A stretch of 64,000 nucleotides of DNA from the NCBI GenBank assembly GCA_943353165.1, contig CALRAM010000001.1, positions 109,803 to 173,802 on the forward strand, written 5' to 3'. Made by a program: the position numbers and the translations under genes. This document shows, in pieces, positions 862 through 61,484 of the stretch. This stretch comes from an uncultured Candidatus Saccharimonas sp. (GTDB lineage Bacteria; Patescibacteriota; Saccharimonadia; Saccharimonadales; OMJO01). Each line of letters begins with the position of its first letter. Position 1 is the stretch's first letter. The notes under the pieces were generated by a model, which saw only the letters and a list, made by a program, of their open reading frames with translations, was not told the DNA's origin and did not search any database.

Positions 862-885
862 GTCGGGTATTGTACCCGACTTTTT
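862..885 (+). terminator. Rho-independent terminator hairpin after tRNA-Tyr (centre of a longer palindrome, 829-914)
   Basis: GTCGGGTA-TTG-TACCCGAC followed by TTTTT. Confidence 0.6.
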
Positions 886-1020
886 ATATGGTTCCGGGCT
901 GTAGGATACGAACCGTACGGCGTAGCCGTGGTTCGGTGGAATGAGGACGCGCGCAGATGCTTGCATCGAGCACGCCGGAATGGATAAAGGACGAAGTCCG
1001 CTATCCTACACCCTGCACCA
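886..1020 (+). repeat. GC-rich tRNA-flanking structured element, copy 1 (ORF-less), ending in an exact 18-nt copy of the tRNA-Tyr 3' end
   Basis: It shares motifs with 37917-38055 and 61326-61484: GAACC-loop-GGTTC, GGTTCGGYG, GCRCAG-hairpin-CGAG, and AAAGGACGAAGTCCGCTATCC. Nt 1003-1020 equal 836-853. It is visibly GC-rich against AT-rich flanks. Confidence 0.6.
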
Positions 1021-1097
1021 ATTTAACAATCCGACATTTGACGGGTTTTTAAATTGCTCCCGGTCTAAAAAATTCGATTTTTGAGCTAGGTGAATTA

Positions 1098-2980: not shown

Positions 2981-2983
2981 CGC

Positions 2984-5023
2984 ATGGCGCAAATAATAAC
3001 ATTTGATTTCAGCCCAATAGGTTTTGACGAGGTGCGTGATTATCATTACGGCCGTGACTGGCCTGTTGTCTATATACTTGAGTCAAATAACGAAGCATAC
3101 GTCGGTGAAACCACGAATTTTTATAACCGAAGCAGGCAGCACTATGAAAATCCCGACAGAAAGAGGTTAAAAAATGCTCATATTATTACAGATGAAACAT
3201 ATAACAAGTCTGCCGCTTTAGATATAGAATCATTTCTTATAACACATCTTGCCGCTGAGGGTACTTTTTTATTGCAAAATAGAAATGACGGTATACGTGA
3301 TCACAACTACTATCAAAGGGATGAGTACCAGGCAAAATGTGAAGTTATCTGGAAAGAACTGATTGAGAAAAAACTTGTTCAAAAAGAAGTTTATGAGATA
3401 GAAAATAGTGACCTATTCAAATACTCACCATATAAGTCATTGACTGAAGAACAACACGATTTTGTTAAGCAGTTGGTTGAAGATATTGAAAAGGATAATG
3501 CCAAAACGTATGTAGTAGAAGGTGCACCAGGCACCGGGAAAACAATCCTCGCCACATATCTTGTGAAGTATTTGAAAGATAGACGAAGCACAAAACATTT
3601 AAAGATTGCGCTTGTGGCGCCAATGTCGAGCTTGCGCGGGACAATACAGCAGGTTTTCCGTGCAACAGCCGGCCTTAAAGCAAATATGGTGATTGGACCT
3701 AGCGGGGTAGCAAAAGAGGCATACGATCTTGTAATTGTTGATGAGGCGCACAGACTTAAAAAGAGAAGAAACCTCGGCGCTGGATTTGGAGCATTTGATA
3801 ATGTTAATAAAAAACTTGGGCTTTCAAAAGAATCCACTCAACTTGACTGGATTCTTGGGAGTTCAAAGCGTCAGGTCTTGTTTTATGATCAAGGACAGAG
3901 TGTTTTGCCCTCAGACATTCATGACATAGATTTACGTAGCAAGGGTGCGCAATTTTATACGCTCACAAAACAGATGCGCATACAGGCTGGTGAAGAATAT
4001 GTTCTACTAGTCGAAGCTATACTTAATCAAAGGGAAATTATTAGCACAAAACTAAATAATTATGAATTTCAAATATTTGATGATGTCGCAGAAATGCACC
4101 ACGCGATCAGGCTTAGAGATAAAGAGCACGGACTCTCTCGCCTTGTTGCAGGTTTTGCATGGCCATGGTTTACTAATCCAGCAAGTCCTGGCCCAAAACA
4201 AGATTATGATATTGAGATCAATGGTTATAAATTAAGGTGGAATAATAAAACAAAGGACTGGGTGAACTCAACTGGTGCTATTAATGAAGTGGGGTGTATT
4301 CATACAGTACAGGGCTATGGAATGAACTATGTGGGTGTGATTATAGGCCCCGAGCTTTATTATGATGAGAAAAATAAACGAATAACGGTAGATAGAAGTA
4401 AATACTGTGATCGCAATGGGCATGCTGGTGTTACGGACCCTGATGAGCTAGAGCGGTATATTAAGAATATATACAGAACATTGCTTACTCGTGGTATAAA
4501 AGGTACCTATGTATATATTGTTGATGAAAATCTCAGGAATTATTTTAAGATGCTGTTAAACCAAGAAACTGCTCAAGAGCCGCTGGCTGAAGTATTTTAT
4601 AGTGAAAATAAAGTATTGGACTTCCTTAAAATGAAAATGGTCGGAATACCTTTGGTTGGTTCTGCCCCTTGTGGCAACCCAATGCTCGGGGAAGAGAATA
4701 TTGAAGAATATATTGAAGTCGAAAAAAGCAAAATTAGACCCGGCTACAATTACTTCATACTACGTGCGATTGGTGACTCGATGAACCTTGCCGGAATAAA
4801 TGATGGCGATTTAGTACTCTGTCGTCAGCAATTAAAGGCCGACACTGGTGACAGGGTGGTTGCACTCTTAGGTGACAATGTGACAATAAAAGTATATGGG
4901 CCTCGTAAAGACGGCGTGCGATTTCTTTTGCCGAACAGCTCGAATAGTGAGCATGCCCCTATAGCCCCCAGTGAAGGCGATAGTGTACAGGGCATTGTGC
5001 AAGAAGTTTTAACTGCAGATTAA
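2984..5023 (+). CDS. three-domain protein: N-terminal GIY-YIG-like (COG3410 type), DUF2075/Schlafen-like P-loop helicase-type ATPase, C-terminal LexA/UmuD-type S24 self-cleaving peptidase domain
   Basis: 679 aa. PVVYILESNNEAYVGETTNFYNRSRQHY (GIY-YIG-like); Walker A GAPGTGKT; Walker B LVIVDEAHRL. The C-terminus aligns by eye to LexA: IPLVGSAPCG (Cys563-Gly564, nt 4670-4675, UmuD-like cleavage pair), GDSM (Ser599, nt 4778-4780), VTIKV (Lys636, nt 4889-4891). It starts 4 nt after the mazG stop. Confidence 0.8.
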   Translation: MAQIITFDFSPIGFDEVRDYHYGRDWPVVYILESNNEAYVGETTNFYNRSRQHYENPDRKRLKNAHIITDETYNKSAALDIESFLITHLAAEGTFLLQNRNDGIRDHNYYQRDEYQAKCEVIWKELIEKKLVQKEVYEIENSDLFKYSPYKSLTEEQHDFVKQLVEDIEKDNAKTYVVEGAPGTGKTILATYLVKYLKDRRSTKHLKIALVAPMSSLRGTIQQVFRATAGLKANMVIGPSGVAKEAYDLVIVDEAHRLKKRRNLGAGFGAFDNVNKKLGLSKESTQLDWILGSSKRQVLFYDQGQSVLPSDIHDIDLRSKGAQFYTLTKQMRIQAGEEYVLLVEAILNQREIISTKLNNYEFQIFDDVAEMHHAIRLRDKEHGLSRLVAGFAWPWFTNPASPGPKQDYDIEINGYKLRWNNKTKDWVNSTGAINEVGCIHTVQGYGMNYVGVIIGPELYYDEKNKRITVDRSKYCDRNGHAGVTDPDELERYIKNIYRTLLTRGIKGTYVYIVDENLRNYFKMLLNQETAQEPLAEVFYSENKVLDFLKMKMVGIPLVGSAPCGNPMLGEENIEEYIEVEKSKIRPGYNYFILRAIGDSMNLAGINDGDLVLCRQQLKADTGDRVVALLGDNVTIKVYGPRKDGVRFLLPNSSNSEHAPIAPSEGDSVQGIVQEVLTAD

Positions 5024-12458: not shown

Positions 12459-12662
12459 ATGGCAAAGAAACAAGGAAAACGAAAACTGGTAGGTATGGTG
12501 TCCGAAGAAAGTGGCCACCGGCACTATTACACGCCCAAAAATACTATAAATACGCCTGACAAGCTCCAACTGCGAAAATATGACCCCGTACTGCGTAAAC
12601 ATGTACTCTACGTAGAAACAAAGAAATCTCTGGGTCGCAACGAAGTCAAAAAGAAAAAATAA
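12459..12662 (+). CDS. rpmG: 50S ribosomal protein L33
   Basis: [38 protein letters not shown] matches the L33 core, with a Lys-rich C-terminal tail. Confidence 0.85.
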
Positions 12663-12740
12663 TTCTATAATTTTTTTTAGTTACAGTAAATCATGGCTAA
12701 AATAAATAGAATCTACCTAATGTAGATTCTTTATTTTGGC

Positions 12741-12810
12741 AGGGGCGCGTGGAATCGAACCACGATCTAAGGTTTTGGAGACCTTTATACTAACCGTTGT
12801 ACTACGCCCC
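12741..12810 (-). tRNA. tRNA-Trp (anticodon CCA)
   Basis: The minus strand reads GGGGCGT-AG-TACAACGGTTAGTA-T-AAGGT-CTCCAAA-ACCTT-AGATC-GTGG-TTCGATT-CCAC-GCGCCCC-T. No CCA is encoded. Confidence 0.9.
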
Positions 12811-13055
12811 TAAACACCTAATCTATTGTACAGGTTTTTTCTAGCAGACGAACTATTCTTGAACATGGCTTCTCTTGCTCTGGCTTGTTTTTCATCTGTA
12901 TACGCTTCGTAGTATACAAGCTGAAGAGGCCTCCTGTGTTTGGTTGATTTAACTAGTCCATCATTGTGCTGATTGAATCTTTTAGTCAAATCAGATGTAT
13001 ATCCATAGTATAAGTTACTATCTTTTAATGATCGTAAGGTATAAAAGTAAAACAT
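12810..13055 (-). CDS. small stand-alone GIY-YIG nuclease (UPF0213/YhbQ-like)
   Basis: 81 aa. YFYTLRSLKDSNLYYGYTSDLTKRFNQHN (GIY...YIG...R..QH) and a later conserved E (YYEAYTDEKQARAREA). Its TAG stop overlaps nt 1 of tRNA-Trp. Confidence 0.8.
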   Translation of the reverse strand: MFYFYTLRSLKDSNLYYGYTSDLTKRFNQHNDGLVKSTKHRRPLQLVYYEAYTDEKQARAREAMFKNSSSARKNLYNRLGV

Positions 13056-13066
13056 AGATTAAATCA

Positions 13067-13138
13067 TCGTGGAATCGTCCGAGCCCCGCGGGGCTCAGGA
13101 TTGGAGACCTTTATACTAACCGTTGTACTACGCCCCTA
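13067..13138 (-). pseudogene. partial/rearranged second copy of tRNA-Trp (5' half intact through position 37, T-loop remnant, no 3' acceptor strand)
   Basis: 13101-13138 is a perfect 38-nt direct repeat of 12775-12812. It is followed on the minus strand by TCCT-GAGCCCCGCGGGGCTC-GGACGATTCCACGA (compare GGTTCGATTCCACGC in the intact gene). Confidence 0.7.
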
Positions 13139-13246
13139 TGTTTTTAATTAACAGGTACATACTACTCTTAAATTGCTAAATTGTCATCAATAATGTAATC
13201 ATTTGGATTTTTTAATTTAACGATAAAGTGTTATACAATATACTTT

Positions 13247-13912
13247 ATGAATAAAACTGTTTTGACTAAACCAACTTTAATAATTCTGTACGGCTTTCCT
13301 GGGGCTGGTAAAACATTTTTTGGTCGTCAGCTGGCTATTGACATTCATGCTGCTCATTTGCAAACAGATAAAGTTAGATATGAAGTGTTCGAAAAACCCA
13401 CGTACTCCAAAGATGAAAATTCTACAGTCAGTAATCTTACAAACTATATGGTAGAAGAATTTTTAAACGCTGGAAACAGCGTAATATTTGATTCTACGGC
13501 CCAAAGTATTTCACAACGCAAAAATTTAAAGCAAAAAATTATAAAGACCAAAGCCCAAACATTATTGGTGTGGATACAGATAGACGTAGAAAGCGCTTTT
13601 ACTAGAGTGGCATCGCGTGATAGGCGTAAAATAGACGATAAATTTAATACTGATATGGACCGGACATCCTTTGACGATCAATTATCTAAAATGCAAAATC
13701 CACAACAAAACGAAAACTACGTCGTAATAAGTGGTAAACACAATTATCAAATGCAACGTGCTGCTGTTATGAAAAAATTCTTTGATTTAGGTCTGATAAA
13801 TGCGACTACCGCAACAGATAACATGGTAAAACCAGGCATGGTAAACCTGGTTCCTATGCAAAGTGGTGGTAGATATGACGATACCAGAAGAAATATAGCT
13901 ATCAGAGGATGA
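13247..13912 (+). CDS. P-loop kinase-like ATPase (AAA_33/zeta-toxin-like fold)
   Basis: Walker A LYGFPGAGKTFFG. 221 aa. Confidence 0.6.
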   Translation: MNKTVLTKPTLIILYGFPGAGKTFFGRQLAIDIHAAHLQTDKVRYEVFEKPTYSKDENSTVSNLTNYMVEEFLNAGNSVIFDSTAQSISQRKNLKQKIIKTKAQTLLVWIQIDVESAFTRVASRDRRKIDDKFNTDMDRTSFDDQLSKMQNPQQNENYVVISGKHNYQMQRAAVMKKFFDLGLINATTATDNMVKPGMVNLVPMQSGGRYDDTRRNIAIRG

Positions 13913-37916: not shown

Positions 37917-38055
37917 GTAGGTTTGACTGCGGTCTATTAGAACCCCACGACAAAGTCGTTAAAAGGGTTCGGCGTAGAGATGCTAGGCGCAGGAGTTTAC
38001 TCCGAGCATGGCTGAACAGAAAAGGACGAAGTTCGCTATCCCTTCAACCCAGTCA
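37917..38055 (+). repeat. GC-rich tRNA-flanking structured element, copy 2 (ORF-less), ending in a diverged copy of the tRNA-Gln 3' end
   Basis: GAACCC...GGGTTC hairpin (37940-37970), GGTTCGGCGTAG, GCGCAG-GGAGTTTACTCC-GAG, and AAAGGACGAAGTTCGCTATCC (38021-38041; 20 of 21 nt match 986-1006). Nt 38038-38055 match 15 of 18 nt of 37867-37884. Confidence 0.6.
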
Positions 38056-38225
38056 GGGTTCGACAAACTACATATTTGTGAGACTAACGGACCATTTTTG
38101 ATTTAGTAATTCAAATACCCAAAATAAAGATCGATATAAAACATATCTATAAAACAAAATATATTGACTCCGTATATGTAATATTGTGTTATAATACTAC
38201 TGTTTAAAAGATACTAGAGAGAAAT

Positions 38226-61325: not shown

Positions 61326-61484
61326 CGTTCTGGAAACCAGAACCTCGAACCGCAGGTTCGGTGTAGCGAACTCACGCACAGGAGCTTCCGCCGAGAAAAT
61401 GAGGAAACGTGCCGCAGGCAGCCCCGGCCTCTCTTCGAGTCTGAGCCTGAGGGCTCATCCCTCATAGTTGAATGACCGGAGCCA
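61326..61484 (+). repeat. GC-rich tRNA-flanking structured element, copy 3 (ORF-less), ending in CCGGAGCCA (the tRNA-Asn 3' end)
   Basis: CTCGAACC (61344-61351) mirrors GGTTCGAG of the tRNA T-loop (61261-61268). It also has GAACC-GCA-GGTTC, GGTTCGGTGTAG, GCACAG-GGAGCTTCC-GCCGAG, and AATGAGGA...GCCGCAG (compare AATGAGGACGCGCGCAG at 940-956). Confidence 0.55.

Follow-up and report, generated by a model that had tools for sequence, protein, structure and literature searches.

A GIY-YIG gene inserted at tRNA-Trp in a Candidatus Saccharimonas genome and its tRNA-linked relatives

The tRNA-Trp locus

A 64-kb stretch of DNA from an uncultured Candidatus Saccharimonas sp. (contig CALRAM010000001.1; the whole stretch is referred to here as the window) carries a small gene of the GIY-YIG family lying between two copies of the 5' part of tRNA-Trp. 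Comparison with close relatives identifies this gene, together with the sequence ahead of it, as a discrete insertion of 288 nt (the cassette) accompanied by a 38-bp duplication of its target. The cassette gene and the tRNA lie on the minus strand, and the neighbouring genes have homologues that carry the annotation Candidatus Saccharibacteria. The features are listed below in minus-strand order; X denotes the pseudo-tRNA upstream of the open reading frame (ORF).

13159-13187, minus: promoter-like site ATGACA-17-TAGTAT, found by consensus scan, upstream of the partial tRNA copy
13101-13138, minus: repeat copy 1, tRNA-Trp positions -1 to 37, the 5' part of X; 38/38 identity to 12775-12812
12813-13100, minus: 288-nt insert, absent from empty-site genomes (blastn against L092 and L094-L096)
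13081-13096, no strand assigned: perfect 16-bp GC palindrome GAGCCCCGCGGGGCTC, centre CGCG, flanked by tcct (13097-13100) and gga (13078-13080)
13068-13077, minus: T-loop relic CGATTCCACG, equal to tRNA nt 56-65 (3' part of the T-loop and 3' strand of the T-stem); perfect 10-nt repeat of 12748-12757
13056-13067, minus: 12-nt leader, read from the sequence
12810-13055, minus: 81-aa GIY-YIG nuclease gene, placed in the UPF0213/SLX1-like clade by Pfam, PDB profile, AlphaFold and Foldseek
12775-12812, minus: repeat copy 2, the 5' part of the functional tRNA; 38/38 identity to copy 1
12737-12811, minus: complete tRNA-Trp(CCA) with encoded CCA (ARAGORN; Rfam RF00005, 66.1 bits)
12708-12730, minus: intrinsic-terminator-like hairpin closing the unit, kept in empty-site genomes

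The direct repeat had been proposed in an earlier reading of the sequence (the original prediction), and it is identical at all 38 positions, with no further copy in the window at up to three mismatches and 0 expected by chance. Its extent needs a small correction: it does cover tRNA nt 1-37, but with one upstream nucleotide rather than two, A1-U72 being the first pair. Likewise, the TAG stop of the ORF overlaps the tRNA as proposed, but shares A and G (nt 1-2) with it and not the G alone. The stop codon is thus made wholly of duplicated target, namely position -1 and tRNA nt 1-2. When both tRNA copies were checked, ARAGORN and Rfam called the downstream, complete tRNA-Trp and left the upstream copy (13101-13138) uncalled. 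Rfam searches of 12600-13300 at gathering and permissive thresholds (to E=10) returned tRNA only, with no intron family and no ribozyme.

The insert consists of a linker, the palindrome, the T-loop relic, the short leader and the ORF through its last sense codon. It holds this one ORF only, and no integrase or recombinase gene was found within 12813-13100. Position 37/38 had been taken as an integration or intron position; what can be seen there is the end of the duplication, and the insert carries a further tRNA piece (nt 56-65) after the hairpin. The same junction, a hairpin followed by CGATTCC, is also present in L008, L009, L051, L073, L078 and L085, which are loci with homologous genes. 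GAGCCCCGCGGGGCTC belongs to a family of CGCG-centred hairpins found beside such ORFs and is the sole GC palindrome with 8-bp arms within the 64 kb, its uniqueness in the window ruling out a dispersed REP-like repeat. The leader contains a two-codon in-frame upstream ORF, ATGATTTAA (13059-13067, minus), ending 3 nt ahead of the GIY-YIG start codon, and no obvious Shine-Dalgarno sequence can be read in 13056-13067. An assembly artefact is excluded, because five independent assemblies from different samples share the identical filled structure.

Empty and filled sites

Genomes that lack the cassette were reached by two routes. L094, L095 and L096 were found through a 98%-identical AAA_33 protein, and L092 by scanning metagenome contigs with the 3' part of the window tRNA-Trp. 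In L094-L096, whose flanks are 98.0-99.1% identical to the window, the site is exactly empty: the sequence reads ...taattaaaaacat / AGGGGCG...CTCCAA / AACC... (slashes mark the boundaries), which is the upstream flank of the window joined to an intact tRNA-Trp, and tblastn finds no GIY-YIG gene in these genomes. Since this same flank directly precedes the intact tRNA in L094, the promoter-like site at 13159-13187 is probably the native tRNA-Trp promoter. L092 is a more distant relative (rpmG 100%, YgjP-like protein 96% and AAA_33 kinase 86% amino acid identity) and is also empty, with a syntenic tRNA-Trp and no GIY-YIG gene at the locus. Window positions 14000-13101 and 12812-12400 align to it by blastn with a 38-nt overlap. 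In L092 and L094-L096 alike, blastn matches a stretch of 38 nt at the empty site to each of the two repeat copies, and the repeat is single-copy in L092 and L094.

Because the empty-site genomes align across both flanks, the window is an empty site plus the 288-nt insert (12813-13100) and the 38-bp duplication. Hairpin, T-loop relic and ORF are gained or lost together as one 326-bp unit whose ends are set by the repeat, which, for the window, rules out tandem duplication followed by decay of the upstream tRNA copy. Two proposals of the original prediction are borne out here, namely that nuclease ORF and hairpin form a discrete insertion without an integrase, and that a functional tRNA is kept by way of the duplicated 5' part. 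A third is not. The inversion of tRNA-Trp relative to rpmG/secE had been seen as part of the event; all empty-site relatives, including the more distant L093 and L100-L102, in which an inverted tRNA-Trp lies beside AAA_33, have the same orientation, so the inversion predates the cassette and is unrelated to it.

Filled alleles occur in the window and in L001-L005, and L097 is filled in a second, L092-type background. The end of the L097 contig reads GTCCGAGCCCCGCGGGGCTCAGGA / TTGGAGACC... before passing into L092-type flank, with an identical hairpin/X junction. The contigs of L098 and L099 break at the repeat. In L018, an identical tRNA-Trp with the same AAA_33 neighbour bears a different cassette (protein 54% amino acid identity), in which the partial copy comprises nt 1-6, a hairpin and nt 5-15, and the ORF overlaps the tRNA by 10 nt.

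These comparisons bear on the simplest alternative, that of an ordinary, immobile gene of the tRNA-Trp operon, vertically inherited, with a repeat that arose by local tandem duplication. GIY-YIG genes do lie near tRNA-Trp/rpmG in many Patescibacteria. Nevertheless, this explanation is contradicted by the empty sites and by a clean 326-bp indel between genomes that are 98-99% identical, and it fits poorly with the different cassette at the same tRNA in L018, with the twelve tRNA isotypes next to which relatives occur and with upstream halves derived from foreign tRNA alleles (see below). It can be given almost no credence.

The flanking AAA_33/zeta-toxin-like kinase gene (window 13247-13912) is hyper-divergent between genomes that are otherwise 95-99% identical. 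Against L092, 27% of its third codon positions differ, compared with 7.5-8.3% for rpmG and YgjP (Fisher P 7e-9), so that a 0.75-kb tract adjoining the cassette shows about three times the third-codon divergence of either gene. At first this resembled co-conversion of the tract with the cassette, but both AAA_33 alleles occur with and without it and all four combinations of flank allele and cassette state exist. The pattern indicates frequent recombination in the region, without linkage to the cassette.

The encoded protein

The 81-aa ORF at 12810-13055, read as a GIY-YIG gene in the original prediction, matches PF01541 over residues 1-74 (E 1.3e-16), which makes its product a member of the GIY-YIG superfamily. 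Across 19 homologues, Y3, Y5, Y16, G18, Y19, R26, H30 and R61 are invariant and E62 is nearly so. The AlphaFold model (pLDDT 93.2) has the order beta-beta-alpha-beta-alpha-alpha. In profile searches against the PDB, the best values were obtained for 1zg2 (7.8e-14) and 1ywl (1.4e-12), followed by SLX1 (3e-3) and I-TevI (0.5); among proteins of solved structure, the UPF0213 members BH0048 and EF2693 come nearest in sequence, then SLX1. Foldseek gave TM scores of 0.70-0.73 for SLX1 (rmsd 1.4-2.2 A), 0.54 for UvrC and 0.50 for I-TevI. Together, sequence and predicted structure place the protein in the UPF0213/SLX1-like clade and not with I-TevI or UvrC.

Within that clade (UPF0213, YhbQ, YazA and SLX1; 1zg2, 1ywl and 6seh; PMC7017083), which supplies the best sequence and structure matches, the catalytic residues are conserved. 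SLX1, YhbQ and YazA have been handled as one family of structure-selective nucleases (PMC7017083). SLX1 has an added zinc-finger domain and needs SLX4, while the cassette protein has no added domain. The searched literature does not report a mobile, tRNA-linked context for this clade. The cassette protein is treated here as a putative nuclease, its activity and substrate being predicted from its relatives. It has no match in PADLOC or PHROGs and only a sub-threshold match in NCBIfam, to a group-I-intron endonuclease; a role as a defence system is rejected on the absence of PADLOC matches, with NCBIfam sub-threshold only.

Relatives at other tRNA genes

A scan of one genome per GTDB species yielded at least 591 relatives, from which 80 loci were kept, nearly all of them in Patescibacteria and a few in Bacteroidota. 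A co-oriented tRNA starts between -12 and +100 nt from the stop codon in about 30 of the 80, often after a gap of exactly 1 nt. Against a background of roughly 0.5-2%, this proximity has a binomial P<1e-30, so that the enrichment of GIY-YIG homologues at tRNA genes, a test put forward in the original prediction, is clear. Twelve isotypes are represented in these loci (Trp, Glu, Lys, Ile, Asp, Ser, Ala, Val, Gly, Cys, Tyr and Arg). In seven further loci, a complete tRNA lies just upstream, with a hairpin at its 3' CCA end.

Two arrangements recur. In type 1, the upstream pseudo-tRNA is split by GC hairpins at loop positions 8/9, 11-12/13, 24/25 or 35-37/38, and the hairpin sometimes replaces nt 38-55, as in the window. 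For example, L008 and L009, with homologues of 49-65% identity, show rpmG, tRNA-Trp nt 1-37, CCCGGCCGCGGCCGGG, CGATTCC..., the ORF and a complete tRNA starting 1-3 nt past the ORF stop. Hairpin-interrupted upstream partial copies of the local tRNA were found in L008, L009, L016, L020, L029, L036, L051, L052, L056, L067, L073, L078, L079 and L083. In L016, L073 and L078, the upstream half comes from a tRNA-Trp allele other than that of the functional tRNA. The matching 3' half is found downstream in L016, preceded by an anticodon loop and a hairpin; in this locus, a resident tRNA gene houses the cassette along with the cassette's own tRNA.

The persistence of the pseudo-tRNA plan (nt 1-37, hairpin, nt 56 onwards) across lineages, with covarying hairpin arms, could be expected if its RNA served a purpose, either as decoy or antitoxin for a toxic nuclease or as a regulator of tRNA-Trp processing. 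Such an addiction or regulatory module would also accommodate the tandem arrays of these units in L051, L053, L085 and L088, and the predicted fold of the whole transcript, which pairs the acceptor strand of X with the tRNA 3' end. However, folded in isolation, the X region does not outperform shuffled sequence (z -0.47), PADLOC returns nothing, and GIY-YIG enzymes are DNA nucleases. This explanation is highly improbable.

In 526 kb scanned, 22 of 26 CGCG-centred hairpins lie within 225 nt of a GIY-YIG ORF (P 2e-17), often on both sides of it. Their arms vary yet stay paired, a covariation whose figures are biased upward by the preselection of the set as palindromic. In many of the hairpins, inverted arms of 10-11 bp enclose 6 central bp (TCGCGA or CCGCGG), as in the core sites of tyrosine recombinases, and in several loci the hairpins bracket the ORF. 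The palindromes might therefore be core sites of a host recombinase, Xer/dif-module-like or integron-like, that moves a passive cassette in trans with the nuclease as cargo. Set against this, the GIY-YIG ORF is the only constant gene, no linked recombinase was found in the window or the inspected loci, and the arm sequences vary freely so long as pairing is kept. Passive movement of this kind seems quite improbable.

In type 2, the ORF lies between inverted repeats of 11-18 nt, the right one covering the stop codon and tRNA nt 1-4, and 7 or 11 nt from the 5' end of the local tRNA recur upstream. In L032, L035, L038 and L040, units of about 285 bp (CCCCACACCAAAT...ATTTGGTGTGGGG) with 13-14-bp terminal inverted repeats occur in unrelated flanks without a tRNA (at about 2985-3270 in L032, L035 and L038), and enclose only an 84-aa GIY-YIG ORF whose stop is inside the right repeat.

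Type 2 copies, with their inverted repeats and short duplications, and the tRNA-free units of about 285 bp speak for a minimal DNA transposon, in which the ends, hairpins or inverted repeats, would be cut by the GIY-YIG protein as transposition nuclease, and the duplication would result from staggered cutting of tRNA genes at their structural boundaries. Hairpins on both sides of the ORF (L016, L017, L034, L088), breaks at the cloverleaf boundaries 7/8, 11/12, 37/38, 55/56 and 65/66, and the SLX1-like, structure-selective fold would all suit such an element. The window copy itself departs from the layout of insertion sequences and DNA transposons: it has a hairpin at one end only, no terminal inverted repeats, a duplication as long as 38 bp and no known transposase domain. 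Moreover, no recent transposition was caught, the element copies found being 25-40% diverged; hydrolytic nucleases cannot rejoin DNA; and we know of no GIY-YIG transposase. Transposition is, on balance, an unlikely explanation.

A neighbour-joining (NJ) tree, built from about 85 aa and without support values, has protein clades that track tRNA identity and not host taxon. Its tRNA-Glu clade, for instance, crosses from Patescibacteria to Bacteroidota and joins Colwellbacteria, Magasanikbacteria, Cytophagales and Flammeovirgaceae, with a common hairpin CACCCNAAGGGTGA.

Several further arrangements were observed around these genes. In Bacteroidota, two hairpin-laden pseudo-tRNA-Glu flank the ORF ahead of the real tRNA-Glu (Cytophagales, L070 1660-2220; Flammeovirgaceae, L074 2800-3520), and the hairpin CACCCNAAGGGTGA of the Bacteroidota tRNA-Glu loci is also present in the Patescibacteria locus L056. 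Tandem arrays composed of an anticodon-loop remnant or hairpin arm, a tRNA 3' end and a spacer are placed between or after the tRNA and the GIY-YIG ORF (L085 28-347, L051 3317-3520, L053 and L088 2830-3000). A second GIY-YIG ORF in L023 (about 2080-2170) lies between tRNA-Ile, directly upstream, and tRNA-Phe, giving tandem cassette-tRNA units. The palindrome centre is CCGCGG in Saccharibacteria cassettes (window 13081-13096, L008 2541-2556, L009 5942-5957) and TCGCGA in many others. CCGCGG is also the sequence at which the GIY-YIG restriction enzymes Eco29kI and Cfr42I act, which may be coincidence.

Expression and movement of the cassette

The explanation we favour, with a probability of about 65%, is that 12813-13100 is a small selfish cassette residing at tRNA-Trp with a 38-bp target duplication, driven by the tRNA promoter and moved by recombination. 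It builds on an indel polymorphism bounded by the repeat, on the duplication, on the intact catalytic motifs and fold, and on the family-wide tie of such genes to tRNA 5' ends and hairpin-interrupted pseudo-tRNAs.

The cassette comprises the GC hairpin, the relic of tRNA nt 56-65, a short leader and the SLX1-like GIY-YIG gene, with no promoter of its own. Reading from the native tRNA promoter would yield a single transcript with pseudo-tRNA, nuclease mRNA and tRNA-Trp. RNase P cuts tRNA precursors at -1/+1. Because of this, a cut at nt 1 would remove the cassette as a long 5' leader and yield a normally matured tRNA, at no loss to the host, and the same cut would split the stop codon (U/AG), leaving a non-stop mRNA and damping expression of the nuclease.

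As for movement, a single crossover of the Campbell or ends-in type between the chromosomal tRNA gene and a unit of about 326 bp carrying tRNA positions -1 to 37 would give the filled structure, and a crossover between the two 38-bp copies would, in reverse, give the exact empty site. The intermediate may be circular or linear. Most likely, the nuclease would make the initiating break at hairpin- or cloverleaf-forming DNA. Given the SLX1-like fold, the hairpins and breaks that coincide with cloverleaf boundaries, such shape-directed cleavage may be its most attractive role. By fragmenting the pseudo-tRNA, the hairpins may in addition leave less homology for excision and thereby stabilise the insertion.

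A number of observations weigh against this explanation. The window holds a single cassette copy, and the direction of the indel is not polarised: deletion across the 38-bp repeat would equally yield the empty alleles. That repeat barely exceeds the minimum length for RecA-type recombination. The 7-11-nt duplications and inverted repeats of relatives point to a different, transposon-like chemistry, and a nearby tRNA is missing from about half of the homologous loci. The catalytic domain fills the whole 81 aa, with no DNA-recognition domain, and the bacterial UPF0213 proteins, though widespread and represented by two solved structures, have to our knowledge no established function. The filled allele keeps an intact tRNA-Trp as well as an intact upstream flank with nt 1-37; because both persist, a short target inside the tRNA would give no immunity. 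The preselection of the hairpin set as palindromic and the unsupported tree are to be counted here too. Finally, no relatives were found in viral contigs of IMG/VR with the patterns used, and with no PHROGs matches either, a phage vector is rejected.

The persistence of the complete tRNA-Trp and of the flank with nt 1-37 also counts against a neighbouring idea, that of a canonical homing endonuclease which cuts the cassette-free tRNA-Trp near 37/38, with double-strand-break repair then copying the cassette from a filled allele. The original prediction had likewise seen a free-standing cassette of homing-endonuclease type. The cassette is indeed free-standing, and its presence or absence varies at a single fixed site, both between near-identical genomes and across two backgrounds. 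Some homing endonucleases are known to have the GIY-YIG fold, T4 SegB operates within a cluster of tRNA genes (PMC2330249), and the protein clades track tRNA identity. However, a classic homing enzyme is doubtful. With the complete tRNA-Trp, the upstream flank and nt 1-37 all retained in the filled allele, only a site of more than 38 bp that reaches across both ends is lost, so that carriers would lack the expected immunity. The protein is a bare 81-aa catalytic domain without the DNA-binding modules of I-TevI and the Seg enzymes, and is structurally nearer SLX1/UPF0213. In addition, the AAA_33 tract, which at first resembled co-conversion, is unlinked to cassette state. Canonical homing is, on balance, unlikely.

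Relation to known systems

A close precedent for a recombination-moved selfish cassette is found among restriction-modification (R-M) gene units inserted "with long target duplication" (Nobusato/Furuta/Kobayashi), which have duplications of more than 30 bp and no mobility gene (PMC2853133). Both are nuclease units without transposase or integrase that are absent from a sister genome, and both are flanked by a direct repeat of more than 30 bp that is single-copy in the empty genome. The same study also has inverted-repeat-flanked variants with short duplications (PMC2853133). With its 288-nt insert, 38-bp repeat and lack of a mobility gene, the cassette corresponds to such units in all but the absent methylase. 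Unlike them, it is only about 290 bp long with a single 81-aa GIY-YIG gene, targets the 5' part of a tRNA gene, bears hairpins and tRNA relics, and belongs to a family specialised on tRNA genes. We class the cassette as a variant of this known behaviour of selfish nuclease genes.

T4 SegB resembles the cassette gene in being a free-standing GIY-YIG gene among tRNA genes, outside any intron, and it confers preferential inheritance on its locus (PMC2330249). It differs in its size of about 220 aa, its DNA-binding modules, its phage location and its position between genes without tRNA duplication (PMC2330249), whereas the cassette protein is a catalytic domain only. Integrase-borne islands and prophages also integrate at tRNA genes, restore the gene with a duplicated segment and can have their boundary in the anticodon loop. 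They duplicate the 3' part, from the anticodon loop to the 3' end, are situated downstream and bring a recombinase gene of the tyrosine or serine type, while the cassette duplicates the 5' part, lies upstream and would be co-transcribed with the tRNA, and its single ORF is not a recombinase.

The tRNA introns of Patescibacteria occur in the same phylum and are inserted into tRNA genes, in the anticodon loop or close to it, in some cases together with endonuclease genes. The cassette differs from them in having no ribozyme, and no splicing is required because a complete, uninterrupted tRNA follows the insert; with no Rfam intron family either, it resembles neither group I nor bulge-helix-bulge introns. 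GIY-YIG goes unmentioned in a recent survey of Patescibacteria tRNA introns.

A full-text search returned no published description of UPF0213-type GIY-YIG cassettes abutting tRNA genes, although its coverage was incomplete and this is absence of evidence only. It is possible, if doubtful at this stage, that the relatives make up a class of minimal autonomous mobile elements, so far undescribed and about 285-330 bp long, below any insertion sequence in size. In such elements, a sole SLX1-like GIY-YIG protein would read DNA shape, in the form of its own terminal hairpins or inverted repeats and the cloverleaf arms of tRNA genes, and would insert at tRNA structural boundaries, duplicating or carrying tRNA segments and spreading across Patescibacteria into Bacteroidota in isotype-specific lineages. 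If the nuclease drives movement, these would be the smallest self-mobilising DNA elements known, and a natural case of shape-directed tRNA-gene targeting, with a bearing on how split and disrupted tRNA genes evolved. The repeated insertion at tRNA 5' ends, the hairpin pseudo-tRNA ends and the polymorphism within a species also suggest a testable role for UPF0213/YhbQ proteins. On a practical level, partial and hairpin-interrupted tRNA copies in Patescibacteria can mislead tRNA annotation and assembly, and the contigs of L097-L099 break at the cassette junction.

Other sequences near tRNA genes

Three GC-rich modules of about 140 nt without an ORF are present elsewhere in the window (884-1024, 37918-38062 and 61328-61480), one each after the terminators of tRNA-Tyr, tRNA-Gln and tRNA-Asn. 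By sequence the three are a single family, with the motifs GGTTCGGYGTAG, GCGCAGGAG..CCGAGCA and AAAGGACGAAGTYCGCTATCC, and each ends in a copy of the 3' end of its tRNA (for Tyr, a perfect 18 nt, 1003-1020 equal to 836-853). Rfam holds no family for them. The cassette had been thought a protein-coding counterpart of these blocks, a kinship that is rejected: they are found past the terminators, 3' of tRNAs, and neither the cassette nor any of about 85 GIY-YIG loci shows similarity to them.

In L008 (2071-2145), a pseudo-tRNA-Thr directly follows the real tRNA-Thr with no GIY-YIG gene between them, and a GC hairpin, TCCCGAC-CCA-GTCGGGA, stands in place of its 17-nt anticodon arm. A serine recombinase gene and a Phage_CRI replication gene adjoin the 3' end of tRNA-Trp in L006 (2290-4858) and L007 (1353-3921), where the GIY-YIG relative lies upstream of rpmG. 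Lastly, window 2981-5020 (plus strand) encodes a separate, large protein of 679 aa with weak GIY-YIG, ResIII/SLFN-like helicase and Peptidase_S24 matches.

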